A stretch of DNA of 64,000 nt from Convolutriloba macropyga (GCF_964194025.1 NC_134470.1:37014001-37078000); one strand, 5' to 3'. Counted from the first letter of the stretch, positions 25,616 through 53,254 are shown. A program made the numbers and translations. Notes: generated by a model not told the origin, from the letters alone.

Positions 25616-25616
25616 C

Positions 25617-26676: not shown

Positions 26677-26883
26677 TCTAAATAACTTTTTGGAAATTTT
26701 TAGGTCTGCATGTTTGTTTATTTTACTGCTTCATTTGTTTTTTTTTCTATTTTTTCTTAGTCTGTCGGATCAACTCCATCCTCTTATCGCAAAAGAAAAA
26801 TTAAATCTAATTTTGATAGCTTGCACAAGTTTTGCAAGAAAAAAATCAACTTTTCAAAGAATTTATTTTCATTGTAGAAATAC

Positions 26884-27322
26884 TTAATTTTCAGCAGCAA
26901 ATTGTAGCAACTCTTCTTCAGTTAGATAAAAAGAAAAAGTTCGGGTCGGTAAATAGATACAGTGAGCAAAGTATAAACAGTACAATGCACACAGTTTACT
27001 TGTCGCTAGCTGTTTGAACAAGGGACGAATTTCGACATATTTAATGGATGTATTTTTTGTAGAGTTTCTGCAGTCTTTTAAAAATACTCGGGAAAACTTC
27101 GTGAAGATCTCGTTTGAAGCAGTCGTAGAAAAGTAGTTGTCCATTACTGTCTGCGATCAAAAGCCAGTGTTCCCAAAAAAAGCAAGATGGTTGATTGTTA
27201 ACAATAACAAATTTGTTTCGCTGAATGAAAGGGAAGTTCTCCGCAGAATAACAGACAAGGTAACGCAGGCTAAGCTCAGAGTGTTTACTGACAAAACGAT
27301 CAATGTCACTGTTGTCAACCAT
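26884..27322 (-). pseudogene. Adenain-like cysteine (capsid maturation) protease
   Basis: IVNN...EHWLL (His), FYDCF (Asp), and after a frameshift QLATSKLCALYCLYF (Gln, Cys); start overlaps the capsid stop. Confidence 0.9.
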
Positions 27323-28678
27323 TGTATATTGCTGAGTTTTTGATAACTTCTCTATTGCAATTAACCAAAGCAACAGATTGACGTTCAGCCATAAGTATGA
27401 CTCTAATGGGTTGCTTGGTTGGTGTTTTGAATTTGAATTCGATCCCCAACCGGGCACCAGTAAGTTCTGGGCGGATTGTGCTGTCCCGTAAGTTGGAATC
27501 GGCTGTAAGATTGAAAATCAACGCAAAATGATTGGCAAAGTTATCTAGAGTAATTCCGTTGCCGCCAACAGAATGACCCAAGGCCGTCATTGTTGTGTGG
27601 TAGAGACGGACGTGGCTTTTAGAGATATCAATGGGTGTGCCACCTACTTGCGATCCTTCTCGTGTGACCCTCACTGAACTCAAATTAAAGTCCTCGAAAT
27701 TGAAAGGATTAGATTTGTACGTTCCGGTGAAAGACTTCTCTGGTACCAAGACCACAACCAATTTGCAAGCTGGAGCTCTATTGAACAAATCATCCTGGTA
27801 ATAAACGCTGGTACCTGTAGTGATTCGAAAAGAAGTAATTGGAGACTCTTGCCACTCAAATTGAGCTGCTTTTTTCTTTAAAGCTCTCTCAAGTGAAATA
27901 ACGGTCTCCGTTCGAAGTTCCAACAAGTGTACAAATAGAAGCATTTAGGACCTTGATTGTGAAACTACTCGCATCTTGACAACCTCCGGGCTGATGCATA
28001 ATGAACTTGTCCAAAGAACGTGTCAGTCTGATCCGAACTTCAACTCCAGGTACCAAATACTTGTCAACACCGTTCAAAAAGTTGTTAGAAATTGTGGAAA
28101 AAGTGTGAAAGCTACGCCCTGAGTTATTTCATACCGTCTGGAAAAAGCATCGTTTTTCAAAGTGTTGAAATCCGAAAGAGCTGGTTCAAAACTATACCAT
28201 TGAGTTGCCATTATGCTCTGCTTGGTTGTCAGGTCGTAACTGAGGTCTGCCTCTAAGATGGACTTAAGGGGGTGCAAATTGCTGGACGAGGAAACCATGG
28301 TGCCATTCAAGAAAACTTCCACATTTTGCCACAAACTATTGGCGATGTTCTTCACGAAAATTGGTAGGAGCTCGCCGTCTGTACCATCACTTTTTTTCTT
28401 CCTAACAGCTGCTTCGCCTGATGATTCTTTAATCAACAATAATTCCATAATTCCATTTTGAGTAAAATGTTGTTTAGATCGGCTACAGTTCCACATATTT
28501 CCGTACGTGGCGCCTGAAATTCAAACTCCAACACTGGGCCATCTGAGTTTCTTGGCGGGAAAATTCGTTTGTCGTAAGCGCAGACAAAATCAGCCAAAAC
28601 TTGACTTGTACCAAAGAGGTCCAACATTGAGCTGGTTGCTGAAACTGGGGGATCGGCATAGGTGAAGGAATGAGACAT
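27315..28678 (-). pseudogene. Major capsid protein (double jelly-roll), frameshifted
   Basis: GPVLEFEF, NSLWQNVEVFLNG, KYLVPGVEVRIRLTRS, FTGTYKSNPFNFEDFNL, NGITLDNF...LIFNLTAD: motifs typical of animal Polinton major capsid proteins. Confidence 0.9.
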
Positions 28679-28691
28679 TGCAATCAATCAG

Positions 28692-29250
28692 TTAGGTAGC
28701 AGCGTCGACGATGGAGGAAAAGAAATCTTGCTTGTTATAGTTCTTCTTTTTTTTCGTTATACGCCTACGGTTTGTTCTCAAGACACGCTTTTTCCTTGTG
28801 GAACGGTTTCTGATCGTTTTTCGTGCGGAGCCTTTTGATTTTCTTCTCTGGTAGCGGAAGCGCTTTTTCTTTGATTTTGTCCTTCTTTTTGTATTGGTAA
28901 TCCGTTTAGGTGTCGATGACAGACGTCGCCCTTTTTCTGTTGAACTTTTTCTTCTCGAGCGACCACTTCCAATTTGTTTTTTTACCGTTTCGCGTAAAGT
29001 TTTTTTCAGGGCAGCTTTTGGTTTTGTACGTCCCTCTATTATCCCTAGCACTTCAGGAGCGGCATATTGTACCAAGTTTTTTGATAAGGGTAGACCGTAT
29101 CGCTTTGCAAGTGGTATCACAAAACTTTTCAAACCGAGACGCAGCGCAGAACCCAGCCCACTGCCGTATTGACGATTTGTTGAACCAGAATAAAAACTAG
29201 AATTTGCTCGGGGAAAAAAGTATGCGATTAGAATGGTAGTTGACGTCCAT
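28692..29250 (-). pseudogene. Basic core-like virion protein with Q-x-G-x-G motifs
   Basis: FYSGSTNRQYGSGLGS upstream of the annotated ORF, an amphipathic segment, QIGSG, then a long K/R-rich tail; located between integrase and capsid genes. Confidence 0.7.
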
Positions 29251-31293
29251 TCAAGAACTGTTTACAAAGAAAAGTTTCTGCCTTTCCCCCGCTGACGGTG
29301 AAGCAAGGCGTTGACAACTGAATCGCTTGACAATCAATATGAGTACTGAACCGCAGGTTGCCTATCAACCCGGTCACAAACGATTTCTTAAGCTGACCAA
29401 TTAACTAGGCCCTCAGCTGCAATGCCTACTTGCTGGCGGCCACGATGTCTATCTTCGTCAAACTTAAAAGCAACTAGTTCAGAAGCATAGAGACGTCCCA
29501 AAATTTCTTTGCCTGTGTTATCATGCAGTACATAGGTTATGGGTTCACTACGATTACGCGGAATGGACACTCTTGCAACAGTAAAGACTTCATCTGTAAA
29601 TCGCTGCTTATAACCTTTCTGGAAGGGTTTTCGCTGAAAAGACAAGCGAACAGTTTGTTTTTTCCTAAAGACTTTTTTCGCCAAAACAGTTTGGGTGGCG
29701 TACGATAACTCTTCATAACTGAATTTGGTCTTTTATCGTAAGCATTGGGACTGTTTTGCAGAACAAGACTCCTAACATGTTCCTTAGAGACGTCTGCGGG
29801 AGCTAAAAGATGCTTGAGTTGACTCGAGCGTTTATCAGCCTCACAAATTGTTGAAGATGACCCAAATAAGTACATGAACCACTTTCTTATAAAAATTTGT
29901 ATAAAAATTTTTCAACGTACGCACAAACCGCTCTGCAATAGCACTTTTCGAATCACCATAAGTGCTATAAACTTCAACTCCTAGCTCCTCACAGTGTTTT
30001 CTAAAGTATCCTTTGAATTCTTTCCCTTGATCTTTCCAAAGTTTTATGGGCACTGATGTTGGTTTGATTTTCTTCTCTGGTAGCGGAAGCGCTTTTTCTT
30101 TGATTTTGTCCTTCTTTTTGTATTGGTAATCCGTTTAGGTGTCGATGACAGACGTCGCCCTTTTTCTGTTGAACTTTTTCTTCTCGAGCGACCACTTCCA
30201 ATTTGTTTTTTACCGTTTCGCGTAAAGTTTTTTTCAGGGCAGCTTTTGGTTTTGTACGTCCCTCTATTATCCCTAGCACTTCAGGAGCGGCATATTGTAC
30301 CAAGTTTTTGGATAAGGGTAGACCGTATCGCTTTGCAAGTGGTATCACAAAACTTTTCAAACCGAGACGCAGCGCAGAACCCAGCCCACTGCCGTATTGA
30401 CGATTTGTTGAACCAGAATAAAAACTAGAATTTGCTCGGGGAAAAAAGTATGCGATTAGAATGGTAGTTGACGTCCATTCAAGAACTGTTTACAAAGAAA
30501 AGTTTCTGCCTTTCCCCCGCTGACGGTGAAGCAAGGCGTTGACAACTGAATCGCTTGACAATCAATATGAGTACTGAACCGCAGGTTGCCTATCAACCCG
30601 GTCACAAACGATTTCTTAAGCTGACCAATTAACTAGGCCCTCAGCTGCAATGCCTACTTGCTGGCGGCCACGATGTCTATCTTCGTCAAACTTAAAAGCA
30701 ACTAGTTCAGAAGCATAGAGACGTCCCAAAATTTCTTTGCCTGTGTTATCATGCAGTACATAGGTTATGGGTTCACTACGATTACGCGGAATGGACACTC
30801 TTGCAACAGTAAAGACTTCACCTGTAAATCGCTGCTTATAACCTTTCTGGAAGGGTTTTCGCTGAAAAGACAAGCGAACAGTTTGTTTTTTCCTAAAGAC
30901 TTTTTTCGCCAAAACAGTTTGGGTGGCGTACGATAACTCTTCATAACTGAATTTGGTCTTTTATCGTAAGCATTGGGACTGTTTTGCAGAACAAGACTCC
31001 TAACATGTTCCTTAGAGACGTCTGCGGGAGCTAAAAGATGCTTGAGTTGACTCGAGCGTTTATCAGCCTCACAAATTGTTGAAGATGACCCAAATAAGTA
31101 CATGAACCACTTTCTTAAAAAAATTTGTATAAAAATTTTTCAACGTACGCACAAACCGCTCTGCAATAGCACTTTTCGAATCACCATAAGTGCTATAAAC
31201 TTCAACTCCTAGCTCCTCACAGTGTTTTCTAAAGTATCCTTTGAATTCTTTCCCTTGATCTTTCCAAAGTTTTATGGGCACTGATGTTGGTTT
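28837..31293. repeat. Internal tandem duplication 1 (~1229 bp: 28837-30065 and 30066-31293)
   Basis: Near-identical copies; junction ggttt|gattttc with TTT microhomology. Confidence 0.95.
29388..30065 (-). pseudogene. Duplicated 3' part of the integrase
   Basis: Copy of 30616-31293 (WKDQGKEF, AERFVRTLK, FQKGYKQRFT). Confidence 0.9.
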
Positions 31294-31720
31294 TTCGATA
31301 TTAATCATCTTTGAAAAAGCTTCAAAAGCTGCCTGAACAGATTTTGATTTCATTGTGCGAACTCGTAGAAAACGTGTTAACACATCAACTGCAATAGAGA
31401 GATACTATACGCCGTCATTTTCCTTTGAAAATTTATTCATAAAAGCGACATCAACGGACCAAATATGAATCACTCCGAGACTTCTGATTTAAGTCTTTTG
31501 AACTTTTGTCTTGCAGCTTTAAACTTTGTATACACTTTACTACTCTCCAAAAACTCGCACTTTCGACAAGGGTAACCCGCTGGCTTTTCTCAAACTGGAA
31601 ATTCCACCATAAGCCGCAGGGTTGTTCAGCGATGTGTAGATTCCTTTCAAGTAACGATACTCAGCTTCTGAGAGTCTCCGCTATTTTACCGGCCTTTTCT
31701 GTCGTTTTAACAGCAACCAT
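30616..31720 (-). pseudogene. Retroviral-like (RVE, DDE) integrase
   Basis: PAAYGG, IWSVDVAFM, AVDVLTRF, WKDQGKEF, KSAIAERFVRTLK, FQKGYKQRFT.EVF, YVLHD.TGKEI.GR.YASEL. Confidence 0.93.
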
Positions 31721-31777
31721 GCTTTCAAGCTTTCAATTCAGTATATAGAAAATATGAGTAGAACAAATCAACAACTA

Positions 31778-32552
31778 TCACTCAAGACTTAGCTTGGATG
31801 AGCTAATTTTATCGTCAATGACTTGCATCGCGCAACTGTTTAGGAGCATGGACTTTAGATGATCAACTTTTTCCTTTGTTATCGGCACCATCAATAATGT
31901 TTCAACAATTTGACGTTCCATCCAATTCAACTTTTTATTATGAATCTGCAAATTCTTAAGAAACTGTATCAGGTTAACAGAATTTGTCATCTCAACTTGA
32001 TCGCCCGACTGAAATGAATTAGATCCGAGGAGTAAGCGATTACTAGATTGGCTGAAAGAAAGACTGGGATTGGAGTCATCAGAGACAAAAGAGCTCGCAT
32101 GCAATAACGTTTCAGCATAGCACCATGTTTTTTCTGACTGTTGATTTTTGGGAGCGTGGACCTCCTTTCTTTTTTCTATACAACTGTTTCAAAGAAGAAC
32201 TGACAATCGATTCTTCCCTAACAGGGTCGAAAGAAGAGTTTCCTTCAAAATTAGTTGACAGGTTGTTTTGTCTGTTGTTGTTAGCAGCTGACTCGCTGTC
32301 GTGCTGGTTCTCTACAGGAGTAATTGAGTAGTTCAACAGTTCTCCGTGATCTTCTTTATTGACATCCGTTGTATTGAAGCTATCTGCTTTTGGGACAGAG
32401 GAATATGACCTTTTGGACTGTGGCTGCATTGCTAGCAAATTTGTATGAATAGCTTTTTTTGGCTCTTCTAGTTCTTTCAGCAACGGAACTAGTGCAAACT
32501 CAATAAACTTTGACGCTGTATTTGACGAGGCCTGCTTTGCTCGATATGACAT
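31778..32552 (-). CDS. Hypothetical Maverick protein(s), possibly one frameshifted gene
   Basis: Adjacent ORFs 32112-32564 and 31778-32104 between ATPase and integrase; no recognised motif. Confidence 0.45.
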
Positions 32553-32608
32553 AACAATAAGCACAAAAAAAATGTTAAATTAGGGGAAAAAATTTTATCG
32601 GATTTAGT

Positions 32609-33680
32609 TCAGCTGCAGTGCATGCAATGTTTAACATTTTGCTGATCAATTTTGCCACCACTCGTTAGTGTGATTGCACAATTTTCGTAAAGTTCACGGA
32701 TCGAACCATGTAATTCGTCATGTAGAAAAGAGCTGTTTTGATGGAGGGTAAAATTGTTCGAAGAGACTTGTGTAAAATCGAAAGAAATGGGTGCATTCCC
32801 CGCGACGAGGCACCGGCTGATTTGACTAGAGTCTAACGACAACTGGCACTGATCACCTGTTTCATTTTCAAAGGAACCACTGACTGCTCTCCTTTGCTTT
32901 GATTGCGTGTCAGATGATACTAAAATATCTTTTTTGCTACATACGGTAGTATTGCAGATGTAGATGCAAAATCTCAGACTATCGGGACATGTGGGTGTCA
33001 AGTCAATTAGGAAATGACCGAGTGGAAGTCTCATGCGATGCTTATAGCAGCTGTTGAAACACAGGCGTTGCAGTATCCAGCTCAAGAGCCTAAGATTTTC
33101 AATTACTTACCAACGCGTGGTGATTTTGTGAGAACGATATGCGTTGCGCTCTTATCAATGGTAACCGAATAAGGACCCTGTTGATAGAGATTGTGTTTAA
33201 TGAAAATTGAGGAGATGTTTTTATGCCTACCGGCTGTCGCCAATGTAGCGAAAACCTTGCTCTCCACAATTTCCTCACCGCAGTCATCAAAAATTAGCAG
33301 CTTTTTCTTTTGTGGGTAGCCTATGTTGCTGTGCTTCTCGGAAATAGCATGAAGCTCACTCAAAATAAGGTCGTCAACACAATATTCGTCGTTGCTAGCA
33401 CCGCTGCTGTTGTTAGTTGTTAAGGGTATTCATGATTGAATTTTTTGACTGAATGCAGCACTTGAATTCTACTGACACTTTTTCCCAAAATCTTCAAAAA
33501 ATCGTAATAAACAGGTCGCCAGTAGCGATAAATGTAAACAATGTGTTCAAAGGTGGTTCGAAAACTCCCTGTAGGACAGTAGGAGCTGATAGCATTGAAA
33601 GGATCAGCTGAGTTTTTCCAGTTCCGGAGCTTCCGCAAACACATAAAAACACGCTCTTTCGTTGATATTAACTTATTCAA
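32609..33680 (-). pseudogene. A32/FtsK-like DNA packaging ATPase
   Basis: Walker A GSSGTGKT (alternate frame near 33615-33635), Walker B LLIFDD, AGRHKNIS, KHNLYQQG, KSPR, GHFLIDLTP. Confidence 0.92.
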
Positions 33681-34470
33681 TACTGCTCATACATGTGGTT
33701 GTCTTGTGCTGCGGAGTGAACGGGGGGTAACAAAAAAGTCAGACAATATGTAATGACCATAAAATATGCAGTTTTTAGCTCACAACTGAGAGTGTCAGAG
33801 GCAGACGACAGCTGGCTACAAGCAATTGAAACCATCACAATTACAAAAAAAATTGAGTATAGAAGGTAGCACGGGTTCTTTCTATTGCACAGCACACAAA
33901 CTCCCAAACATTATGCTGCTGTGAGGTTTTTGATGCTTTAGCATCTTGAATCCTGTCGGCTCCGTCTATTTGGTCAACAGCATCAGCAATGTCAGAATCG
34001 CCAGCTTTACTACCTCTCTGCAACTTTCTAACAACGTGAACTTCAGGGGTTGGCCTCGGAGCAGTCACGAGATAGCCGATACAAGTGCTCAACAAAGTTA
34101 GATACGTCGTATTCTCTTCGCAGAGGAAGGGCGAGGAATGGTGCGTTTCATCACTTGTAGACCCCGCGGTTGCTTTCTTTCGACCCGAGAACCCACTCTT
34201 AGATAACTTGTAGAGATACAAAAAGTTAACAAACACAATCACAATGCATTGTGAAAATCTGTTGATTGGGCCAAAAATAACGAGTGCCAAGTCTTGGTTT
34301 GAATTTTCTTGAACCTTGCAATCTTCAGTTACATTATCTCCGCCCATGTTGTAAAACGTTCTTCCATCGCTCGAATCTGTTGTTTGTTCTTGTACATTAG
34401 ACGGCCGCTGCTGATGATTAGTGTCTTTCATAATTAAAATGAGAGAGCGTGTGCTGAATGGGGTATTCAT
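33677..34470 (-). pseudogene. Putative membrane protein with two similar two-helix hydrophobic modules
   Basis: FSQCIVIVFVNFLYLYKL...YLTLLSTCIGYLVTAP and YSIFFVIVMVSIACSQL...YFMVITYCLTFLLPP in overlapping frames. Confidence 0.5.
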
Positions 34471-34499
34471 TTTGTCTCTTACCCCTATTGGAGAAAAAG

Positions 34500-35760
34500 A
34501 AAAAAACTTCCATTGACATTGATTGACAGATAGATAGATAGATAGACAGATAGATATTGATTAGTATCAAAATGAAAAAAAATAGTAGCCTCAAAAATCC
34601 AAAATTTTGACAGTCAAAAAACCAAAATTTTGACAGAATTTTTGTCTAATTGCATTATCTAATTGATTGCAGTATCATCAATCAGCAGCGTAGTATAATA
34701 ATTCTATTGAGTTTTTTAATTGAGTTGAGTTCAGTTGAGTTGAGTTGAGTTGAGTTGAGTGAGTGAGTTAGTTCGAGTCAAGTGTGTGTGTGTTGAGTTC
34801 AACAAAATGTCAGAGGCAGGCCTCCAAAAGACGAACGCTTTGATGTTGCTGTGCCTGAGGTCTTTTTTGCAGCGGATGATTTGTTGTTGTTTGATCAAAA
34901 AGTTGAAGACTATTTGGACGCAGTGCAGTGGACTGACTGGAGGGATGCACTCTCGTTGTTTTTGACAGTAGAGCTGACGAGTTCAGTTTTGGATATAGTC
35001 ACCCTCCTGCTCCTCTTCCCATTTAAATCTAAGTGGCTGCTTTCCATTGATGTTGTTGTTGCGTTATTTCCTAACAATTCCATATAATTTCCGCACGGCG
35101 TCGCACCGCCCGAAGATTACGCGCCATCCGAAGCCCGAGCAGCGCGTCCGCCGCCGTAGCCCCGCTCGGCGTCGTCCGCGGGCGGCCCTTCGTTCGATCG
35201 GGCAGCGCGTCCGCCATCGGCGCCGTCCGCAGACCGCGCGCCCACGTCGTCCGCGGGCGGTCCGTCGTTCCTCAACTCAGAATTAAAACAACTGCTTTTT
35301 TCTTCCCCTACCTGTTGTTGTTGTTTTTTTTTCTAATCATCTCGTTGTTATCGTTGTTGTGAATAATGTGTTTTTTTCGCTGCAGTTGCAAATGACGGGG
35401 AGCCACCACTTTAGAAATTAGGTGACCAGTCGGGCAAAATACTTGTTTGACACACACACACACACACACACACACGCAGCCAGTCAGTCAATTGAAACCA
35501 GGCAGGAAATTTGTTTGTAACGATTTTTTTGTCTTCAAAGCATCTGAAAAACAAAAGACTTTTTTCTATTGAGAAATACAGGGCCTTTATCGTGAAAATA
35601 AACCAAAAAATTAGTTTATGAAAAAATGATGTATATCACGTCCATCCATCCAACTCATTGTTGACGATCTCCTCATTGCTGTTTTCTTTGCTTTTCTTTT
35701 GCCATAAATACAAAGTTCTATCGAACAAATTAATGTTATCAATCAATCCATCAATCAATC
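34500..35760. promoter_or_regulatory. Internal non-coding region with a CpG island (35090-35280) and GATA, GAGTT and CA microsatellites
   Basis: Abrupt GC/CpG-rich patch with repeats cgtcgtccgcgggcgg x2 and gcagcgcgtccgcc x2, upstream of the structural gene block; regulatory role is inferred. Confidence 0.4.
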
Positions 35761-36129
35761 AACCAACCAACTAAGCAACCATTACAAAAAGGAACTTGAT
35801 AATGAAAAACTGCATAGCTAGGCGTATGATCTAGGTCATTGACAAATATTCTTCTATTAATTATTCTATCAACAACAACAGTATATTTTGAACAATTTCC
35901 CTTGCACAACGAAAAATTAGGAAAATTAGATAGAAACAGCAAAAGAAGCGCCATTTTTAGTAACAAAAGGAGACACAGTACAAAAACAAAAAGAATCCAT
36001 TTTTGTTCTGGCAGCAAAGAAGCGAGCAGCTATAGAAAATAAGTATCAAATGAAAAAAAAATGTAAATAAAAAAATGTAAATTAGTAGCAAGAAATACAA
36101 AAAATAGTGTTTTCCGAAACACCAGCTTA

Positions 36130-38078: not shown

Positions 38079-38431
38079 CACAGTTAGTAATAGGTACACA
38101 ATTGAAACTACAAATGAAAACGAACAGAAAAACATATAAGTGCGGTAGTAAGTAATTAAACAATTAGATTTACCTACAACAAGCAAAAATCTAAGTTACA
38201 AAAAATAGCCTCAAAATGGCAGTTCTCTTCATTCAATTCAATCTTTTGTACAGTAAAAAGCAACAAGTACTGTCATCCATAAAGACTAATTCATCAAAAA
38301 TGTTTGCTGGAATACAATACAAAACTCCGAGATATGGTATACAAACATAGAGAGACAGACAGCCATGAGTCTCTGCTTTAAATGATCATCAAGTTCTCCT
38401 CTTCTTTTGCAGGATATGATCAATCAATCAA

Positions 38432-42500: not shown

Positions 42501-44220
42501 CGCTCTTTGTTGTCGAACAACCAAAGACAAAAATCGTTAACTGAATTGTAACCAACAAAAGATTCCTCAACTCCTGAAAATGATTTTGCAATCCGAAGAA
42601 CCGTTTTGTGTGCCATCTTTCGTTCGCAGCTCTGATCAGTTTCAATGTCAAAGACCCAAGTTTGTTCGTCTGGCACTGCTTGCTCGGCTTCTTCTTCCTA
42701 TCGCGAGAAGGAAGCGTCAGAACTGGACACTGAATTGAAGAGGTTACTCCTCTTTGATTTTTTGCAGGCAAAATTTCCCTTATCATCATCAACAGTCGTT
42801 CTTTCACCAACAACAGTCTCCAGGGCTGCACGTGCCCATTTTTTGGGGCTCTGTACAAAACACTTGTGTTTCTTTCCTTGTGAGAAATCGTAAAATTGAT
42901 AAGTTGCGCACCGTTTTTTGCTGCATTGATGAGTGGACGCCGAGTGCCGGGAAACAGTAAGATTGCACCCAGGACATTTGTAGAAGTAAGAGCAAATACG
43001 TTGTGTTATATGCGCAACCAAGCTCAGCTGACTCTTCAAAAGTAGTCCACAAGTTTGGCAACGATACGTAGAACACGTCTGTAGTCCAAAAAAATCAGTA
43101 TTGAAAGCAGTAGAAGCCCTGTTTCTGCAGTTTGGCATACGGCACTCTGTGCACGAACTGTGTGCACACAAGTGTTTAACAGTAGGGAATCCTTTATGAC
43201 AAGCATATCAGTAAAACAGAACGCTGAACAGGCCCTTCATTGAAGTGATTACATCAACGTGCTCTGCGTCTGAGTTGTACAACAAATCAATGTGCTTCTC
43301 CTGGCCGTCGTTGAAACTTTTCAAATAAACACCCATGAACTTTGCATCGTACACAGTTATGTTGTAGGGTATTAGACTTACAGTTTTTGCCGACATAGAC
43401 AGATCGTCAAGAGTCCATTTTTTATTCGAGCTGTTTTCGAAATCAATATCTGAATTTGAAAACCGTTTCAGTTTGAATATCAACTGTTTTTTTTTCAAAT
43501 CGTGCTTGTATTTTTTGAAAATTGTTTCCTTGCCTGTTGTAATCCATTATCTGCCAGAGCCATGCCTACGCCTAGTGCTGCTAATAAGCAATTATTTGAT
43601 TCATCTGTATGAATAGATATAACTGATCCCTTCTGTGATATGAAAGTTAGTACGTCGGGGATAGTTCGATTATCAATTCCGCCTATTTTATAGCCACCCA
43701 TTGCAGGTAAAGACACCGATAACACATTCACTTCCATATCGCTACTTATGTCGACCCCTTGTTTGAATTTAAAACACGATCTATTTCATTCAGCACAAGA
43801 ACTGGGTAACTCAGACTTGGACCATTTAGAACCAAGCGTATACGGTGATTAGTGTTTTCGTTTTCACGGTTTAATTCTTCAATGAGGAAATTTATCAATT
43901 GATTAAAAATGTCTTTGACTTTGTCAATTTGTGTTTCAATACCTCGGAAACTGACCTCGAAGTCGCGACTGACCGCTTGTAAGGAGCTCTTTCTTTTCGG
44001 TCTTCGTGTTACTTGATAAAAGGTTGAGTGATCAAAACCACTAACCAAGCTCACCTCTGGTGCATTTGCTACAGTAGCGTTGCTGCTGTTGCCATTAGTG
44101 TGTGTGTTTTCACTTGACAAGATCAGTGTCTGAAAAGAGGTATCAAATTTAGAACCTGATTCTTCAATTAATAGTTTAAGACGACGGTCTGTTTGTGTGG
44201 TTTATAGAGAGAACAATCAT
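39570..44220 (-). pseudogene. Protein-primed family B DNA polymerase (pPolB) with N-terminal OTU-like protease, Cys-rich region and Vsr-like insertion
   Basis: VFDIET, FGSGYDF, IDSCLFIP, EKGYFPH, KYCQSDV, YEFFGCYYHGC, KILNSFWGYLG, AAFTTSHAR, LYCDTDS, LGDMTDE, C-terminal PYGF; many frameshifts. Confidence 0.95.
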
Positions 44221-44472
44221 CAATTTCGAACAGCAATAAAAAAATGTTAAACAGAATTCGTGTTCTACTTTAAGTTGACACAAGAACAAAGTATTGTGTC
44301 ATCATAACATAATTATAAAACTCGAGTACAAAGAGTGAACGCATCAGAAATTACAAATGAAAAAGTTTGTTTGGAAAATGATTTGCGGCATTAAATACAG
44401 CAGCATGGGTGGTAAAAGGATAGAGCAAGTTTTACTTTAAATTTGAAAGCAACAGTTAAAGGCACAATTTAC

Positions 44473-44841
44473 TCATTTGTTGACCGGTTTCTTAACATAT
44501 TTACAGGCAAAAACCGCTACCTTATAAAGAAGACATTCTTTGGCTTCAGATTTGAGGAACCACCAAGACGTAGAAGAACTTCTCCAAGTTTTTGACAGGT
44601 TCGTTCCATCAGATACGTCATGCTGAACCACTGAAAACCAGTCAAAAACTCTTTGATATTTCGGAAGCGAATGAAGTCGTAAACCCTCGTCTCTGAGGCC
44701 TTTTAAAAGCTGCACCGCCCTCACATCGTTCACCTCTTTTAATCGAATACGTTCACTTGCTTCCATTAGTGAATCGTTCCACGCCGCAATACATTTGTCA
44801 AGATAGACAACCCTTTCATCTGCACTGGCGTGTACATTCAT
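44473..44841 (-). CDS. Hypothetical Maverick protein (~122 aa)
   Basis: Intact ORF from ATG 44841, preceded by gtttcag. Confidence 0.55.
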   Translation of the reverse strand: MNVHASADERVVYLDKCIAAWNDSLMEASERIRLKEVNDVRAVQLLKGLRDEGLRLHSLPKYQRVFDWFSVVQHDVSDGTNLSKTWRSSSTSWWFLKSEAKECLLYKVAVFACKYVKKPVNK

Positions 44842-45118
44842 TTCACTGAAACGCAGCAAATACGTTAGAAACCGCAACAACAAAATCAGTTTGATTAACA
44901 ATTGATTGGAAAGATATCATTCGATTCTTTTGAAAAGTCTGCCCAATAGTTGACACGTTTTTTCTCTCAAAAAGCTGCAGGTTTAACCCGGATATAAATT
45001 TAAGTACTTTACTATCAGTAAAAACACTGAACTATACATAAAATCTGAAGGTGAAAGATAGGCAGCTTACAAAAATTATAAACGTTCGAAAAAACGTTAT
45101 AATCTAGTTTATAAACAA

Positions 45119-45535
45119 TCACTCTGGGATCGTCGCTGGTTTCTGTGCCTCATTACGCTGTCTATATTCTTGCGATAAATTGAACGCTCTTAAGCTGAGT
45201 GCTTTTGCGTCGTCATGCATGTCAATTTTTCTGTAACAATCCGCCAGCCTCAAATAAATTCGTTCGAGTGTCTTGTTCAGTCGATTCCATTGAAATAAGG
45301 AAGCGAAACGTCTGATGATTCCCATATGGTAGAGCAAATTTCCAAAAGCCTTTGTGCTTTCCAGGTTTCTCAGAGCTTCTATCCATGTACAGGATCTGTT
45401 ATCTATCGAAATGGTAATTGACTGATGTGACAGCTCCAGTTGACGAAAAGCTATCTCAACTTTTTCGTTAACTTCAACTTCTTTTGAGCATGACGGGTTA
45501 GCAGACATTGCACATGGTTGATTTCCACTCTGCAT
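45119..45535 (-). CDS. Helical protein with a TPR-like motif
   Basis: Intact 138-aa ORF; IYLRLADCYRKIDMHDDAKALSLRAFNL fits a TPR pattern; preceded by tttttcag. Confidence 0.55.
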   Translation of the reverse strand: MQSGNQPCAMSANPSCSKEVEVNEKVEIAFRQLELSHQSITISIDNRSCTWIEALRNLESTKAFGNLLYHMGIIRRFASLFQWNRLNKTLERIYLRLADCYRKIDMHDDAKALSLRAFNLSQEYRQRNEAQKPATIPE

Positions 45536-45916
45536 TTTGTGGTCTGAAAAACAGAGAACTGGCTGAATTGGTGATCTTGTGAGAACATTTGTTTTTTTTT
45601 AATTGAATTTGACACTCATTCATCATAATACTATTAAAGACAAGGTGGTTTTGAATAAACTTGCTTCTTGCAGTTGGTCGTTGAAATTAAAAATAAGGGA
45701 AAAAATTTGGTAGTAAAACAACTAAACATGACTGACTGTCTTAGCATAAGATGAAAAGTAATACACATAAGAAAGAAAAAGCGTACAATAAATTTTTAGA
45801 CATATCAAAATCCGCGCAAGAAAAATGAATTATGGTATGTTGAACATTTTGCTATGCTATGGTTTGGCAGCGAAGAATCAAGTCTACAAGAGTCACATTC
45901 GAGCATGTCAGCATTT

Positions 45917-46689
45917 TCATACAAGTTTCTTATACACTTTTGATCGCCTCTCGTCTTCAATGTTATTGAACAGATCGCTTTTTGCTTCGTACAAAAAACC
46001 AAGCATCCAAAAATAGCGCTTGATGTTATTTGTTTCCGGGGAACCTATGTTTATTTGGAGAAGTAGGCTCTTTAAATTAGCTATCATGAAGTCAAAAGCA
46101 GTATTCAATTTTTCTCGCGTTGCAACATATTTGAACTTCGCATAAAGATCATCACATTGACCCTCTGCGATAGCCTTGAGCATCATGTTGCACAGCAATA
46201 TTTGATTTGTTTGTTTACTGACAACTTTCTTCACTACGTCAATCCCGAACATTTGCGCTATCTGGGTTATTTGAACATTTCCACTACCCTAAACAGAACA
46301 CAATAAAATTATTGAGGCTCAGCAAATTATCGAAGTGATTTGTTTTTTGTATCTTTTAGGGTTCGATACTGCCCATCTCAATACAGTACAGTATATGTCA
46401 TCCTTCAAAACATGGGGTGTTTTTAAAGCTAAAAGCTTCTTATTACCTCGTCAGTAACGTCTTCATCGTCCAAGTCAACAACTTCAGTGGTAGAGCTCGC
46501 TTGTTGGGAGTTGTCGTCGACAGACTCTTCGATTTCAATCCGGTTGGAATTGCCTTCATCATCCTCTAGTGTAACATGAAAACCGTCCGGTTGCCTTGTC
46601 AAACGTGCCCGCTTCACAGCAAGATTAAGGCCGCGACTAAGGTCAATTGCTTCACAACTCACTGCTTCAGAAGAACTGACAGAAGTCAT
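45917..46689 (-). pseudogene. Three-exon accessory gene (acidic N-terminus with AIDLS and VVDLDDED motifs), copy 1
   Basis: Exons 46447-46689, 46331-46402 and 45917-46288 join in phase 0 through 44-nt (GT-AG) and 42-nt (AT-AG, donor apparently mutated) introns. Confidence 0.55.
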
Positions 46690-46949
46690 TGATACTTGTC
46701 TGAAAAACACAGTACTATAAGCTTGTTCAAGGTTTGAAAAAAGGACCAACAATAGCTGGAATGAGGTGACGAGTAAAAGCTGCAAAAAATGTTTTTTATT
46801 TAAAAAACAGTAGCAAACGAATACAAACGTATCGTATATAGGTTGATCAAGGAGAGGAGAATAATAATCAGGTAAGCAATCAATCAGTTGGATCAAAGCT
46901 GTGTGATATCATTCAGACGGTTTCATTTTTTCATATTGGAAGAATTGCT

Positions 46950-47585
46950 CTTCACTATTTGACTAGCTTTGAATTTGACTGGGGATCGCCAAATATCTGC
47001 ATCCTGTTCATTTCTAAATGAGACATCCTCTGTAACAGGGATAGCAAAGTCCTCGGAAAGTCGTCCCCAACTTGAGACTTGGTTTATATTTCACCTTCGT
47101 CGCCGATCGTTTCGCCATTTATTTTGTGTTCAACTTCCACAACTTTCGTCTTCATTTTCTTCCCTTCAACAAAGGCGCTATTGCATCTAATTGCTTCAAG
47201 GGATTGCCAGCTCAAAAGACTCCCGCAGTGCCAAATCTGTCAAGCTCAAGGTGTCACTGGATTTACTACCAATAATTTTTGTGACGTTGATCATTTCGTC
47301 CATTATGAGCTATAAACTCGATTGTCGTGTCCATTTATCAGTTATTGTATTGATTTTTGAATCAACCGTAGTTGTTAGTTTGAAGACCTTAATGTAAGCG
47401 TATACGCTCGTTTCAAATTTTCTGAGCCCGACTCTTACAAATCGGTTGTTTTTTGGATCCAGGTCCCACACGTTATCCGATTTTGATACCCCAAGATCTT
47501 CTTCAGGCGTTATTCCGGTGAAAGGCTGTGCATTTTGTCGCTCGAGGTCACTTTGTTCTTTTCGTTTTCTGATCCAGTGCGCCAT
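46950..47585 (-). pseudogene. PC4/Sub1-like ssDNA-binding protein, copy 1
   Basis: VWDLDPKNNRFVRVGLRKFETSVYAYIKVF...W...SL*LIMDE resembles the PC4 pattern; broken by stops. Confidence 0.4.
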
Positions 47586-47609
47586 TCTAAATTATTGCAA
47601 GCAATGAAA

Positions 47610-48329
47610 CTATGAACTAATTTTTTGAAAGAAAAGTGTTGCGTAGGTACGAACAGCTCCCGTGAAAGGTATCAGTTTCCCAGTATCACTTCGAATTTCA
47701 ATCAAAATATCTTGAATATAGGTTTTATTAACAAGCTTAGCTTGAGTTTTGTCAAAAGAGTGACGATATACAGCTGGATATCCGAAACGGCCTGCGATGG
47801 AGGACTCCACCTTTTCAGGACCGATTTGAGTTGCGTCAGATAAAGGGAAAGATCTCAATAAGGTTGCCTTGGTATTGCCAACAAACTGTGGCTCAATAAT
47901 GTCACGACAAACAAAAGCAAGATGATAAATTGATATCCGTTGGAAAAACTGGCTTATCTTCAAACTGGTTGGTTCCGGAGGAAAGTTTATTATGCGTCTC
48001 CAACGGAGATTTCTCTAATCCTAATATGTATCTGAGATCATCGGTAACATTTGTCAGATGAACACAGTCCTTTCCTTCGCATAGAACAACAAAGCCTTTG
48101 GACGTAAGTTCATTTTTCGGGAAAAACTGAAAACCTTTTTTACTTTATCGAAAATAGATTCTTGTCCTCTGGATGAATAGATTCCTTTTTCCATGTTATC
48201 AATCAATTCGAACACGCTATTGTACAAACATTTAGGAACGCGACAATTTGATAAGTAGATGCCAAGTTTTCCATTGATATAGTAAAATTTACCTTCAACG
48301 ATATTGAAGAACTTTTTTGGGCAAGTTAT
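47610..48329 (-). pseudogene. Minor capsid protein, 5'-truncated duplicate
   Basis: Copy of 50133-50852. Confidence 0.85.
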
Positions 48330-48437
48330 TGAAGAACTTTTTTGGGCACTCAATGGTATGTTGAACATTTTGCTATGCTATGGTTTGGCAGCGAAGAATC
48401 AAGTCTTCAAGAGTCACATTCGAGCATGTCAGCATTT

Positions 48438-49210
48438 TCATACAAGTTTCTTATACACTTTTGATCGCCTCTCGTCTTCAATGTCATTGAACAGATCGCT
48501 TTTTGCTTCGTACAAAAAACCAAGCATCCAAAAATAGCGCTTGATGTTATTTGTTTCCGGGGAACCTATGATTATTTGGAGAAGTAGGCTCTTTAAATTA
48601 GCTATCATGAAGTCAAAAGCAGTATTCAATTTTTCTCGCGTTGCAACATATTTGAACTTCGCATAAAGATCATCACATTGACCCTCTGCGATAGCCTTGA
48701 GCATCATGTTGCACAGCAATATTTGATTTGTTTGTTTACTGACAACTTTCTTCACTACGTCAATCCCGAACATTTGCGCTATCTGGGTTATTTGAACATT
48801 TCCACTACCCTAAACAGAACACAATAAAATTATTGAGGCTCAGCAAATTATCGAAGTGATTTGTTTTTTGTATCTTTTAGGGTTCGATACTGCCCATCTC
48901 AATACAGTACAGTATATGTCATCCTTCAAAACATGGGGTGTTTTTAAAGCTAAAAGCTTCTTATTACCTCGTCAGTAACGTCTTCATCGTCCAAGTCAAC
49001 AACTTCAGTGGTAGAGCTCGCTTGTTGGGAGTTGTCGTCGACAGACTCTTCGATTTCAATCCGGTTGGAATTGCCTTCATCATCCTCTAGTGTAACATGA
49101 AAACCGTCCGGTTGCCTTGTCAAACGTGCCCGCTTCACAGCAAGATTAAGGCCGCGACTAAGGTCAATTGCTTCGCAACTCACTGCTTCAGAAGAACTGA
49201 CAGAAGTCAT
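48438..49210 (-). pseudogene. Three-exon accessory gene, copy 2
   Basis: Duplicate of 45917-46689. Confidence 0.55.
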
Positions 49211-49469
49211 TGATACTTGTCTGAAAAACACAGTACTATAAGCTTGTTCGAGGTTTGAAAAAAGGACCAACAATAGCTGGAATGAGGTGACGAGTAAAAG
49301 CTGCAAAAAATGTTTTTTATTTAAAAAACAGTAGCAAACGAATACAAACGTATCGTATATAGGTTGATCAAGGAGAGGAGAATAATAATCAGGTAGGCAA
49401 TCAATCAGTTGGATCAAAGCTGTGTGATATCATTCAGACGGTTTAAAATTTTTTCATATTGGAAGAATT

Positions 49470-50108
49470 GCTCTTCACTATTTGACTAGCTTTGAATTTG
49501 ACTGGGGATCGCCAAATATCTGCATCCTGTTCATTTCAAAATGAGACATCCTCTGTAACAGGGATAGCAAAGTCCTCGGAAAGTCGTCCCCAACTTGAGA
49601 CTGGGTTTATATTTCACCTTCGTCGCCGATCGTTTCGCCATTTAATTTGTGTTCAACTTCCACAACTTTCGTCTTCATTTTCTTCCCTTCAACAAAGGCG
49701 CTATTGCATCTAATTGCTTCAAGGGATTGCCAGCTCAAAAGACTCCCGCAGTGCCAAATCTGTCAAGCTCAAGGTGTCACTGGATTTACTACCAATAATT
49801 TTTGTGACGTTGATCATTTCGTCCATTGTGAGCTATAAACTCGATTGTCGTGTCCATTTATCAGTTATTGTATTGATTTTTGAATCAACCGTAGTTGTTA
49901 GTTTGATGACCTTAATGTAAGCGTATACGCTCGTTTCAAATTTTCTGAGCCCGACTCTTACAAATCGGTTGTTTTTTGGATCCAGGTCCCACACGTTATC
50001 CGATTTTGATACCTCAAGATCTTCTTCAGGCGTTATTCCGGTGAAAGGCTGTGCATTTTGTCGCTCGAGGTCATTTTCTTCTTTTCGTTTTCTGATCCAG
50101 TGCGCCAT
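49470..50108 (-). pseudogene. PC4/Sub1-like protein, copy 2
   Basis: Duplicate of 46950-47585. Confidence 0.4.
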
Positions 50109-50132
50109 TCTAAATTATTGCAAGCAATGAAA

Positions 50133-51005
50133 CTATGAACTAATTTTTTGAAAGAAAAGTGTTGCGTAGGTACGAACAGCTCCCGTGAAAGGTATGAGTT
50201 TCCCAGTATCACTTCGAATTTCAATCAAAATATCTTGAATATAGGTTTTATTAACAAGCTTAGCTTGAGTTTTGTCAAAAGAGTGACGATATACAGCTGG
50301 ATATCCGAAACGGCCTGCGATGGAGGACTCCACCTTTTCAGGACCGATTTGAGTTGCGTCAGATAAAGGGAAAGATCTCAATAAGGTTGCCTTGGTATTG
50401 CCAACAAACTGTGGCTCAATAATGTCACGACAAACAAAAGCAAGATGATAAATTGATATCCGTTGGAAAAACTGGCTTATCTTCAAACTGATTGGTTCCG
50501 GAGGAAAGTTTATTATGCGTCTCCAACGGAGATTTCTCTAATCCTAATATGTATCTGAGATCATCGGTAACATTTGTCAGATGAACACAGTCCTTTCCTT
50601 CGCATAGAACAACAAAACCTTTGGACGTGAGTTCATTTCTCGGGAAAAACTGAAAACCTTTTTTACTTTATCGAAAATAGATTCTTGTCCTCTGGATGAA
50701 TAGATTCCTTTTTCCATGTTATCAATCAATTCGAACACGCTATTGTACAAACATTTAGGAACGCGACAATTTGATAAGTAGATGCCAAGTTTTCCATTGA
50801 TATAGTAAAATTTACCTTCAACGATATTGAAGAACTTTTTTGGGCAAGTTATGCTAGAGAGGGAAACGGTCCACTGATTATCGTTAAGTTCTAGAGGTGC
50901 ACTGAGTGATGTACGGAAGGACGCAAGTGTATTGTCGGGATAGCAATCAAGCGACGCAATGGATGATAAATCAATCGTAAAGAAACTGTTTTCTAATTTT
51001 GTCAT
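50133..51005 (-). pseudogene. Minor capsid (penton) protein
   Basis: FFTIDLSSIASLDCYPDNTLASFRTSLSAPLEL...WTVSLSSI and DIIEPQFVGNTKATLLRSF...IEIRSDTGKLIPF, typical N- and C-terminal motifs of Polinton minor capsid proteins. Confidence 0.88.
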
Positions 51006-51354
51006 CAAAAGGTTGCAATCACCACTGCCTAAAGTTGGCAAGCACTTCCTCTTTAAAATAATTTTAAAAAACCGCTTATGGCGCAAACTGTGTTTTAATC
51101 AAAATTTTAACTTAATAACAATGTCGGAATGAAGACCAAGATGCTTTTGGATATAAGTTGGATGACACTCCTCCACTTTTTTTCTTCCAATGAGAAACAA
51201 AATTTAGTAGTGCAAGCTAATCTAAAACAAAGTGGAAGGGCTGTTTTTTTAAAAAACGCAAACAAGACCTCGTAAAACGCAAACAAAACGCAAGTAAAAA
51301 TGAGAAATCACTAATTTATTTTTGTTGATGAAAAGCAAAAACAGCGAAAGAACG

Positions 51355-52585
51355 AATTTTACAATTTGTAAAATTGGAGCAAGATATCCCTCCCACGTTA
51401 GAAATAATCCTCTTTTTTAAAATCTGTAAACAGGAGCAATAAATAGAATTTACAATTATTCCGAACGAGGAACATAGTTGAAATTTTACAATTTGTAAAA
51501 AGTGGAAGCTGAGTTTTTTTTACAATTTTTAAAAAAAAATAGAAGCTGAGTTTTTCACAATTTGTAAAAAGTAGAAGTTGAATTTTTACAATTTGTAGAA
51601 AGAGATGCCTAAAAATTTGACAATTTGTGAGAGGAACGTAGTTGAAATTTTACAATTTGTAAAAAGTAGAAGCTGAATTTTTTTTACAATTTGTAAAAAT
51701 TAGAAGCTTAATTTTTTACAATTTGTAAAAAGTAGAAGCTGAATTTTCTTACAATTTGTAAGAACTAAAAAATTACAGCAGCAAGACAAAAATAGGTAAA
51801 ACTTACTCGAATAAACAACAACGCTAGGACAAAATCAAAAATTTCAGTCGAGAAGGAGCAACCAAATGACGGTTAGCAACAGTGAGCAAAATGATTTACT
51901 TGGAGCGAGGCAAAGCTAACCTCAACTTGCTAGTCGATAAAACAACCAATCAGAAAAAGTCTGGAAAAATGATCCACAAAACAAAGCATTAAAGCATAGA
52001 GTTCTATCAGAAAAAGTATCAAAAACGAAAAAAGAGCAAAGAATGAATGAAAAGTAGAGAAAAAATTAACCAATCAGTTTTCTTCGCTAACTCAAATTAA
52101 AATTCGGAAACACAAAACGAATCAACAAAAAGGTTGTTTTCATAGTGAATCAAGTTTCTTACAATTTGTAAAAAAATTTTACATTTTGTAAAAATGAGTT
52201 GATCCGACAGACAGGTATCACGATAAAAAGATTAAGATTTTTACATTTTGTAAAATTTCTTTTACAAATTTTAAAAATTGTGCCTGTTTTAGTTTTTGAA
52301 AGAACTTTCGATTTTCCTTGAAACGATGAAAGTTTTACATTTTGTAAAAAAAATTGCAATAGGTACTGTTTGTTTTCAGAATTTAAAATAATTTTTTAGA
52401 ACTATAATTTTTTTACAATTTGTGAAAATAGTTTACAATTTACGTTTTGTAACATAAACTGATTGTTTTTTAGAATTTGCAATACTATTGAAGAAAAGCA
52501 GTTTTTACAATTTGTAAAAAAATTTACAATTTGTAAAAACAAATTTTATACATTTTGTAAAAATTATTTTACAAAATGTAATTTT
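51355..52585. repeat. Subterminal array of palindromes TTTTACAA-T-TTGTAAAA
   Basis: About 18 exact or variant copies in two clusters (51355-51762 with ~32-bp period; 52157-52585). Confidence 0.85.
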
Positions 52586-53138
52586 TTCTGCAAATATAAG
52601 AAACGCTGACTGTGTGCATGTATCAGTCAGTTGTTGCGTATAAACGCGTGATTGTGTGTGGGAGTGTGTGTGTGTGTGGGTGAGTGGGTAGTGTTGATGG
52701 AGGGGGGTACACATTTTTAGTAACTACTTTTTGATAACTTTTTTGATAATTTTTTAACACGCAGCCTTTTTCAAATACGTAGGTTGAATAAGTTGGGAAT
52801 ACATTTGACTATTTAGAATGAGTAAAATTGTTGAGGCAAAAATACTGTTTTTTGTACGTGAGGATAAAGCGTGTTGATATTAAGAGCTATGACAAATTAA
52901 TGTGCTTGCTCTAACAAACAGGAAGTTATTTTAGCAAACACACATACTCACGCACGCATACACTCATACACAACACAAGCAAACACACATACTCACGCAC
53001 ACATACACTCATACACAACACAAACACAAACGCGCACTCAAAAGGGAACAATACAGCAGCTGAAAAAAGTGGGGGGAATTATGACGCTGTATGTTTTGCT
53101 ATTGAAAAAATTGAAAAAGGAAAATGAATAAGCTTACT

Positions 53139-53248: not shown

Positions 53249-53254
53249 CCACTG
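53249..53254 (+). repeat. Right target-site duplication CCACTG
   Basis: Matches 25499-25504. Confidence 0.95.

Follow-up and report, generated by a model that had tools for sequence, protein, structure and literature searches.

Maverick/Polinton elements are recognised by terminal inverted repeats (TIRs), AG...CT ends and a length of 15-40 kb, and their gene expression has barely been described. Operons of up to nine genes are known from Macrostomum lignano, where the trans-splice motif is distinct from the cis motif; the same work cites a rule by which acceptors lacking an upstream donor undergo trans-splicing (PMC8629364, available text). A three-exon leader has been described for the marbled eel adomavirus, in which the used acceptors are located right before LO4-LO7 and the penton resembles adintovirus pentons (10.1101/341131, accessible portion). 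About 30% of transposon Iso-Seq reads in Hydra carry a spliced leader (SL) according to the accessible sections of PMC12220107, and trans-splicing of eri-6/7 in C. elegans is attributed to Polinton TIR repeats in the available text of PMC11414722.

The window analysed here is a stretch of 64,000 nucleotides from Convolutriloba macropyga, a convolutid acoel (GCF_964194025.1 NC_134470.1:37014001-37078000). It contains a decayed Maverick/Polinton copy of 27.7 kb at 25505..53248 on the minus strand, and all genes, exons and splice sites given below are on that strand. The element shows TIRs, AG...CT ends and a length within 15-40 kb. Its TIRs (25504-25587 and 53166-53249) are 84-nt arms of 95% identity, and the same 6 bp occur as a target-site duplication (TSD) at 25499..25504 and 53249..53254, a repeat that was established for the window copy alone. 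Profile searches identified an rve integrase (PF00665, 2.8e-9), an A32-like ATPase (PF04665) and a DNA polymerase B of the protein-primed type (pPolB; PF03175, 1.7e-15 in a sibling and as fragments in the window copy). An adenovirus-type protease was matched (PF00770) in a sister family, family B, and the protein of the present family, family A, is 40% identical to it.

Family A is a multi-copy family with at least 27 matches to its left end across the genome, and the window copy is 91-93% identical to its siblings along most of the element. The right-end gene is missing from the window copy. Family B encodes a TBP-like protein (PF00352, 2.6e-8) and its non-coding DNA cannot be aligned with that of family A; since its copies are 96-100% identical to one another, site conservation within family B is uninformative. 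No relatives from other hosts with DNA were found among viral contigs, and metagenomes gave three distant elements with a two-way gene layout and a capsid identity of 26%, which were left out of the comparisons. The element sits in sense orientation in an intron of a host TBK1/IKK-epsilon-like kinase gene, between the exon at 59043..59172, upstream of the element, and the next one at 24245..24435 (PF00069, 5.8e-13); these exons cover profile positions 88-127 and then 130-191, with phase 1 on both sides.

The initial annotation described a one-direction gene array with splice acceptors just before most start codons and proposed expression from long precursors, through either a shared cis-spliced leader or trans-splicing to a host SL. 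The array itself was confirmed, with all recognisable genes on the minus strand; the only antisense frames of at least 100 codons in less decayed copies measure 109-117 aa and are each located inside another gene. Gene 1 (50133..51005; acceptor G at 51029) is a predicted minor capsid gene that we take to be penton-like; it is broken in the window copy and encodes 291 aa in siblings, and its product is 42% identical to the family B counterpart. The acceptor of gene 2 (acceptor and ATG at 50108..50110, with a duplicate at 47587/47585) lies 22 nt downstream of the gene 1 stop, and the gene encodes 225 aa in siblings. Many acceptors share one six-letter motif, termed hexamer H, which consists of the final six letters in the initial annotation's first acceptor example. 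It is found shortly ahead of the ATG of gene 3 (49210..49221; duplicate at 46700/46689), of a 138-aa gene (45535..45544) and of a 121-aa gene (44841..44846), and ahead of the pPolB gene (39550..44130; PF03175; acceptor G at 44130), which is in many pieces in the window copy while 1294 codons are open in the sibling L028. A 339-aa gene (39396..39448) has two acceptors, one at 39448 and a hexamer H at 39410, with an in-frame ATG after each. The hexamer-H acceptors and ATGs of a 230-aa gene (38045..38055) and a 342-aa gene (37157..37169) have homologous sites in family B.

The ATPase, a 243-aa gene and the integrase (29391..33680, including a 1.23-kb duplication) start without an acceptor, as do the putative major capsid gene and the protease gene (26884..28678), which have a stop/start overlap. 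Between these groups lies a basic core-protein-like gene (28692..29258; acceptor G at 29258, ATG at 29250), presumably pVII-like; its product is 50% identical to that of family B, where the gene likewise has an acceptor. The last gene kept in the window copy (25620..26678) has its acceptor G at 26678 and its ATG at 26676. The putative major capsid, which in a Maverick would be a double-jelly-roll protein, has no Pfam match and 31% identity to a canonical Maverick family of the same genome, and it has further relatives at 45-57%; its feature score was 0.98 to clusters of which 30% have PF21738, with recognition below threshold. Five of ten sibling proteins were matched in the protein collection, none with a named member. 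Gaps between genes in the upstream half are mostly 150-400 nt, the shortest being 22, about 95 and about 110 nt, and canonical poly(A) signals were observed ahead of only about half of the acceptors.

Ten coordinates had been cited as ATG positions, and each proved instead to be the G of an AG. Eight of the ten acceptors are kept in siblings, with the AG present at 51029 in 23/23 copies, at 50110/47587 in 23/23, at 49221/46700 in 25/26, at 45544 in 24/25, at 44846 in 21/23, at 39448 in 14/15, at 29258 in 15/16 and at 26678 in 17/17, but the other two, 38108 and 34485, are not family acceptors. At 38108 the AG occurs in 1/16 copies, and the kept site is 38055 (16/16); at 34485 the T-tract meets the AG only via a deletion in the window copy, 30-50 extra bases being present in the 12 copies inspected. 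Further kept sites beyond the ten are 44130 (identical at the AG in 22/22 copies), 37169 (16/16), 48810 and 51222. Conserved acceptors of upstream and middle genes are located 0-13 nt ahead of the ATG. Acceptor heptamers are 98.2% identical between copies compared with 94.2% for non-coding DNA, although the copies are related by descent and such figures overstate their independence. Homologous genes of families A and B share acceptor sites despite unalignable spacers.

The acceptors also exceed chance in the shuffle comparison that had been suggested for them. TTYAG was observed within 30 nt before the first ATG in 7/20 family A genes (shuffle mean 2.1; 1/500 shuffles reach 7) and in 7/18 family B genes (shuffle mean 2.25; 0/500), and a strict acceptor before an ATG was found in the window copy at 18/448 sense and 2/344 antisense positions (p=0.002). 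The enriched pattern is real, but 'most' start codons overstates it, as the loosest rule finds acceptors for 9/20 genes, or about 11/20 when a second in-frame ATG is admitted. Loose pyrimidine-plus-AG rules match 10-18% of random positions. No acceptor was found before the ATPase, 243-aa, integrase, major capsid or protease genes, and for the major capsid this held by four rules in both families. An annotation-free test, which required an ATG opening at least 80 codons no more than 15 nt after hexamer H, was positive at 14/42 sense sites compared with 0/25 antisense sites (p=0.001) and 0/41 host-flank sites (p=3e-5); a one-letter variant hexamer gave no signal (1/19 sense sites). How far the element stands apart from the genome's canonical Mavericks depends on the rule chosen: two definitions of the acceptor gave p=0.012 and 0.028, two others 0.33 and 0.19, and the annotation-free test p=0.18 with five canonical-family hits.

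The host is equipped for SL addition. Its COX1 matches that of Symsagittifera roscoffensis at 92%, a species in which 30.2% of genes are trans-spliced according to the available part of PMC9911081. The S. roscoffensis SL core has 3,166 matches in the host genome compared with 3 for the reversed control, and 1,297 of these have GT next, many in tandem arrays, so that the host carries about 1,300 predicted SL RNA genes; one of them is predicted to form three stem-loops (z=-4.8). Among 32 dispersed SL-headed retroelement loci, 17 of which have their first ATG no more than 15 nt from the SL, three groups (L157/L124, L129/L126 and L145-146/L141) pair a copy in which the SL stands before hexamer H with a copy in which the SL is joined right after it. 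At the level of DNA, these fossils show that RNA of mobile elements has been trans-spliced by the host at hexamer H. Two loci of the same retroelement group, L125 and L150, have other six-letter spacers ahead of the joint. With host splice sites called by an automatic, error-prone rule, hexamer H was the best-scoring site at 9/30 host start codons and 5/53 internal coding exons (p=0.03), and it made up 7/11 strong near sites of both element families compared with 4/29 strong host cis sites (p=0.004).

The perfect donor at 51801..51806 that the initial annotation placed behind a 17-nt mini-exon has GT in 0/23 other copies; the mini-exon is therefore private to the window copy, and a family-wide cis leader composed of it and donor 51806 is refuted. 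The donor-like site proposed at the inner TIR edge (53132..53137) is kept in family A (GT in 27/28), but no donor of that type was found near the family B TIR. A different arrangement was observed ahead of gene 1, where a predicted ATG-free 5' exon (51116..51221; 112 nt in L011, with a 72-nt counterpart in family B) precedes a predicted short cis-intron (51029..51115). The acceptor of this exon is hexamer H in siblings and its heptamer is identical in 21/21. The donor at 51115 is lost in the window copy and has GT in 20/23 other copies and 18/20 genome-wide; in family B the donor before gene 1 has GT in 17/17 copies, which are 96-100% identical. This full-consensus donor is kept in both families behind the ATG-free exon, and in the loci scanned it is the only non-coding donor of full consensus ahead of or inside the array. 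A second predicted cis-intron of 157-160 nt (48810..48967) joins gene 3 to the next frame in frame, with phase 0 and a stop-free exon 1 in 11/14 copies, and its acceptor is not hexamer H. None of the three acceptors that immediately follow a cis donor is hexamer H.

Expression through splicing is supported for most upstream and middle genes by enrichment, conservation and the second family, but not in the specific cis-leader form first proposed. We consider it probable that host SL trans-splicing resolves most element messages, together with two ordinary cis-introns, and we favour this over a shared cis leader because SL RNA arrays are present in the host genome, as are fossil retroelements trans-spliced at hexamer H. 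Gene packing is what points to long precursors. Transcription may start in the 2-kb left-end region or arrive by read-through from a host gene. The SL would join the ATG-free exon at 51221, and removal of the short cis-intron would then give the minor-capsid mRNA. With the gene-1 donor consumed in this way, the downstream hexamer-H acceptors would have no partner donor and would be trans-spliced by default, so that likely long transcripts would become single-gene mRNAs through SL addition at the acceptors. The ATPase, integrase, major capsid and protease might be expressed from multi-gene messages with re-initiation or from internal promoters.

Traces of these products were sought in the DNA. 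In a low-power search for retroposed spliced copies, the donor-side exon end was found 20 times in family A and 17 times in family B, never joined downstream. Four degenerate patterns for the SL joined to the start behind 28 element acceptors gave 15 matches, none element-derived, again with low power. No SL-core match at up to 4 mismatches was found in the non-SL loci examined for an element-encoded SL-like RNA, and a search of the element with Rfam gave only microsatellite-driven hits below the cut-off. The reads of four sequencing runs cover the window evenly, intergenic DNA included, as DNA runs do.

Several points count against SL trans-splicing. The gene-1 donor occupies, in both families, the very place at which a shared cis leader would be expected to finish, and the preference for hexamer H might reflect no more than acceptor strength, of which distant cis targets would have equal need. 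The rule-dependent contrast with canonical Mavericks, the other spacers at L125 and L150, the error-prone calling of host sites, the relatedness of the copies and the poly(A) signals ahead of only about half of the acceptors stand on the same side. A shared cis leader, in the style of adenovirus late or adomavirus LO messages, would consist of the ATG-free exon, possibly with an exon ending at 53138, alternatively spliced to each acceptor. It would explain the sole non-coding full-consensus donor of the loci scanned, kept in both families despite unalignable non-coding DNA, although that donor has its own acceptor less than 100 nt away and the donor first put forward is private to the window copy. 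The spacing of 22 nt between gene 1 and the gene 2 acceptor fits 3'-coterminal messages, and the marbled eel adomavirus offers a precedent (10.1101/341131, accessible portion). However, no acceptor precedes the major capsid gene, which such leaders mainly serve, and the far acceptors are the host trans-splice hexamer whereas the near cis-paired ones differ. On balance, a shared leader appears rather unlikely.

It is more doubtful still that individual genes or small groups of them are driven by promoters of their own in the 150-400-nt gaps, with a short outron replaced by the SL or a 5' intron removed and no long precursor. Some gaps are too short for this, and a strict one-way array would not be required, as canonical Mavericks of the same genome are two-way, even though most upstream-half gaps would provide room, about half have a poly(A)-like signal and family B encodes a TBP-like protein. 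We regard it as very improbable that the acceptors arose by chance in T-rich intergenic DNA and go unused: copy-specific accidents do account for the cited donor and for two of the ten sites listed with it, and loose rules match many random positions, but the acceptors are enriched over composition-matched shuffles and the opposite strand, are better conserved than adjacent DNA and recur at homologous genes in two families whose spacers cannot be aligned.

If SL trans-splicing is the correct reading, a virus-like DNA element leaves the mRNA maturation of some 15-20 genes to the host SL machinery, in an array longer than the host-type operons of Macrostomum; it would also mean that viral genome layout can be shaped by the RNA processing of the host. 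A further and more tentative suggestion, which we hold with somewhat less than even confidence, is that this acoel Maverick clade rebuilt a whole DNA-virus-like genome into a giant operon resolved by the host SL. Few promoters of its own would then be needed and read-through could allow expression from any host intron entered. No report of an SL-resolved Maverick was found in a literature search, whose reach left out most subscription journals.

The element shares with the Mavericks/Polintons (adintoviruses) of animals its TIRs, 6-bp TSD, pPolB, rve integrase, A32 ATPase, adenovirus-type protease and capsid-like genes. It differs from other Mavericks in being one-way, with the minor capsid gene first and acceptors at many starts, whereas five canonical families from the host genome are compact, with two-way layouts in four of them across the stretches read. 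The words 'splice', 'leader' and 'unidirectional' are absent from the available text of PMC8502044. The Hydra case indicates that mobile elements can use host trans-splicing, but it concerns transposons in bulk, and the accessible sections of PMC12220107 describe no multi-gene Maverick built around the SL. The eri-6/7 case also links Polintons with trans-splicing, but as repeat-mediated joining of two host pre-mRNAs in the available text of PMC11414722, and the term 'spliced leader' is absent from its main text as available. Like the systems with adenovirus tripartite and adomavirus leaders, the element has acceptors shortly ahead of the start codons of penton-like and core-like genes and, preceding the array, an ATG-free exon followed by a donor; it differs in that the major capsid has no acceptor, the polymerase and accessory genes are included and the host trans-splices. 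Co-oriented genes with unpaired acceptors near the ATG are also characteristic of the SL-resolved operons of Macrostomum lignano, nematodes and ascidians, and in the acoel element about half of the genes combine this orientation with unpaired acceptors of the host trans-splice type. A trans-splice motif that differs from the cis motif is a further trait shared with Macrostomum lignano. SL-resolved operons would also be expected to show a poly(A) site close ahead of each downstream acceptor, and in the element canonical signals stand there for about half of them. In contrast to the Macrostomum lignano operons, the acoel array of about 20 genes makes up a mobile, virus-like genome, for which SL addition is probable and the use of one promoter is putative.

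All ten acceptor-like sites that the initial annotation had placed before start codons are present in the window, where each coordinate denotes the G of the AG. Eight of them are kept in other copies (siblings) of the same multi-copy family, family A (14-25 alignments, none of the eight showing more than two exceptions), while those at 38108 and 34485 fail as family acceptors: the former is nearly private (1 of 16 copies) and the T-tract at the latter is due to a deletion in the window copy. Further kept acceptors, overlooked earlier, were found at 51222, 48810, 44130, 39410, 38055 and 37169. The pattern is real but was overstated as preceding most starts, as it covers only about half of the genes and no acceptor was observed before the ATPase, 243-aa gene, integrase, major capsid and protease starts. 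At 35544, about 165 nt ahead of the glutamine-rich gene, an acceptor with hexamer H (the six letters that end the first acceptor example annotated) is kept in 15 of 15 copies, and a frame of two codons directly follows it.

The 27.7-kb element is bounded by inverted repeats (25504-25587 and 53166-53249) with a 6-bp duplication just outside both. Matches to protein-primed polymerase B, A32 ATPase and rve integrase lie in its broken frames, with longer frames and firmer profile matches in the siblings, and by these features it is a Maverick/Polinton. Its left end gave 40 scored matches in the genome, and 26 other copies were sampled (left 10 kb or whole element each); six siblings compared at full length are 91-93% identical to the window copy over most of their length. 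The window copy is decayed, with tandem duplications of 2.52 kb (45832-50900) and 1.23 kb (28834-31300) and a deletion of about 1.35 kb near the lower end (25641) that includes the last gene of the siblings. A capsid search of the genome recovered a sister family, family B (capsid 56% to family A), and several canonical Maverick families (31% capsid identity to the one compared).

Non-coding parts of the element hold other motifs. Arrays of a 17-nt palindromic repeat, possibly protein-binding sites, occupy the left-end non-coding region (window 51480-52600; 1340-2740 in sibling L011) with 6 exact cores in the window copy and 23 in L011, and were not seen in the left end of family B. A CCAAT-box-like motif lies inside both families' terminal inverted repeats (TIRs; window 53205-53215 and 25538-25548; family B locus L032, 2826-2833). 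Family B also encodes a TBP-like protein (PF00352; L033, 5211-5837) behind a hexamer-H acceptor, to which no family A protein matched. Elsewhere in the window, 2813-6092 holds a broken LINE, in which frames for endonuclease and reverse transcriptase were recognised by eye, and 8406-11832 holds a satellite with about 270 copies of a 13-nt unit.

For each gene the longest frame was taken and its first ATG used as the start, with fragments and nested frames removed by hand, and four acceptor rules were scored against dinucleotide shuffles. Family A gave acceptors before 7, 7, 9 and 5 of 20 genes (shuffle means 2.1, 2.9, 4.0 and 0.7) and family B before 7, 6, 7 and 6 of 18 (means 2.3, 3.3, 4.3 and 1.2). 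In family B, two of the four rules were not significant (46/500 and 58/500 shuffles). The canonical families gave 9, 17, 19 and 7 of 61 genes, and the contrast with this set is seen under two of the rules (p=0.012, 0.028) but not under the others (0.33, 0.19). An annotation-free test counted hexamer H where an ATG within 15 nt opens at least 80 codons: this was observed at 7/22 sense sites in family A and 7/20 in family B, at 0/13 and 0/12 antisense sites respectively, at 0/41 sites in host flanks and at 5/30 in canonical families. Eight acceptor heptamers are 98.2% identical among family A copies (1223/1246) versus 94.2% for non-coding DNA, and their AG 98.3% versus 92.2% for other non-coding AG, figures which overstate the certainty because the copies are related. 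Families A and B can be aligned at the DNA level almost only in coding parts, yet both carry acceptors before homologous genes, namely gene 2, the 138-aa gene, the polymerase, two middle genes and the core-like gene. The acceptor pattern is a real, family-level feature. An AG also lies 27-28 nt before the ATPase ATG in four canonical families (L036, L039, L042 and L048), which may stem from an overlapping upstream frame.

The GTAAGT donor annotated at 51806 is not a family donor, as GT was found there in 0/23 other copies. Siblings instead carry this full-consensus donor at the position of 51115, less than 100 nt before the acceptor of gene 1 (predicted minor capsid), with GT in 20 of 23 siblings and in 18 of 20 copies genome-wide; the window copy has lost it. 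It closes a predicted exon that is 112 nt long, lacks an ATG and has hexamer H as its acceptor; family B repeats this arrangement, its exon measuring 72 nt. In the scanned loci no other non-coding full-consensus donor occurs ahead of or within the array, the remainder sitting around the last gene or inside frames. The donor annotated at the TIR edge (53137) is kept in family A (27/28) but has no counterpart in family B. A second cis-intron, 157-160 nt long, is predicted, whose removal would fuse gene 3 in frame with the frame that follows (11 of 14 copies). Where a donor lies shortly upstream of the acceptor, at gene 1 of both families and at the gene 3 intron, the acceptor is other than hexamer H.

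The host is, judged by its sequence, an acoel, with a mitochondrial COX1 92% identical to that of Symsagittifera roscoffensis; capsid-cluster members are labelled Convolutriloba macropyga in one source. Spliced leader (SL) addition has been reported in an acoel (PMC2481426), and 30.2% of S. roscoffensis genes are reported as trans-spliced (PMC9911081). The SL core of that species gave 3,166 matches in this genome versus 3 for a control; 1,297 have GT directly after, many in tandem arrays, and one SL RNA gene folds as three stem-loops, the first of which contains the donor (z=-4.8). The host trans-splices. About 1,900 matches are dispersed (by subtraction), and most of the 32 such loci read (L118-L129, L141-L160) head LINE-like elements, whose PHD and endonuclease matches are weak and below cut-off. 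In 17 of these loci no more than 15 nt separate the SL from the first ATG, and in six hexamer H immediately follows the SL. Three groups pair a copy whose SL lies upstream of hexamer H with a sister copy whose SL is attached right after the hexamer, which constitutes a DNA record of trans-splicing at H; in one group two copies show other spacers. SL-capped RNA seems to be the template from which these SL-headed elements are copied; they may not require a promoter of their own, and their sister copies record successive trans-splicing steps.

Host splice sites were sampled at 83 of 90 loci from three protein families (seven dropped as duplicates or edge cases), using one automatic rule which misplaced some sites. 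It picks hexamer H before 9/30 start codons versus 5/53 internal exons. Among strong sites, hexamer H forms 7 of the 11 near ones in families A and B versus 4 of the 29 host cis ones; among starts, it precedes 7/38 in these two families versus 1/61 in the canonical families.

The layout, enrichment, conservation and host machinery are established parts of the model and, with splicing of the element itself predicted, SL trans-splicing of a precursor probably yields single-gene messages for the hexamer-H genes. The precursor would start at the left end of the element or enter by read-through from a host gene. The SL would join the short ATG-free exon and removal of one cis-intron would give the gene 1 message, while downstream hexamer-H acceptors would receive the SL, presumably because no donor is free, to give single-gene messages. 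The acceptor-less block may be translated by re-initiation behind the core-like gene or expressed from internal promoters. Stop runs in several frames after many genes (window 28690, 38430, 46890 and 35760) and the stop-start overlaps before the ATPase and protease starts are as expected under re-initiation.

A shared cis leader spliced to the downstream acceptors is unlikely. In its favour, the kept donor is placed at the expected end of such a leader, and adomavirus is described as using a leader of three exons, with acceptors ahead of LO4-LO7 (10.1101/341131); it is weakened by the lack of an acceptor before the major capsid gene. Expression from separate promoters is more doubtful still, and chance, set against the shuffles and antisense sites, is a very improbable source of the acceptor sites. 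Trans-splicing, a shared leader and separate promoters can mix.

The element lies in sense direction within an intron of a TBK1/IKK-epsilon-like kinase gene (window 59042-24436), into which it carries more than ten acceptors; this kinase serves innate immunity in other animals. In two sequencing runs compared with the window, a flank contig (25353-25504) continues beyond 25504 into 88 and 445 letters of non-element sequence, a hint of an empty allele, the extension being unmatched to the other flank.

The initial annotation thus described a real family feature with the wrong donor. Literature listings showed no account of an SL-resolved Maverick, and a keyword search of PMC8502044 for splice, leader and unidirectional had no match. 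SLs are reported on transposon RNAs in Hydra (PMC12220107), and trans-splicing driven by Polinton repeats in C. elegans is of a different kind (PMC11414722). In Macrostomum, too, the motif of trans-splice sites is described as distinct from that of cis sites, and acceptors that lack an upstream donor are stated to undergo trans-splicing by default (PMC8629364).
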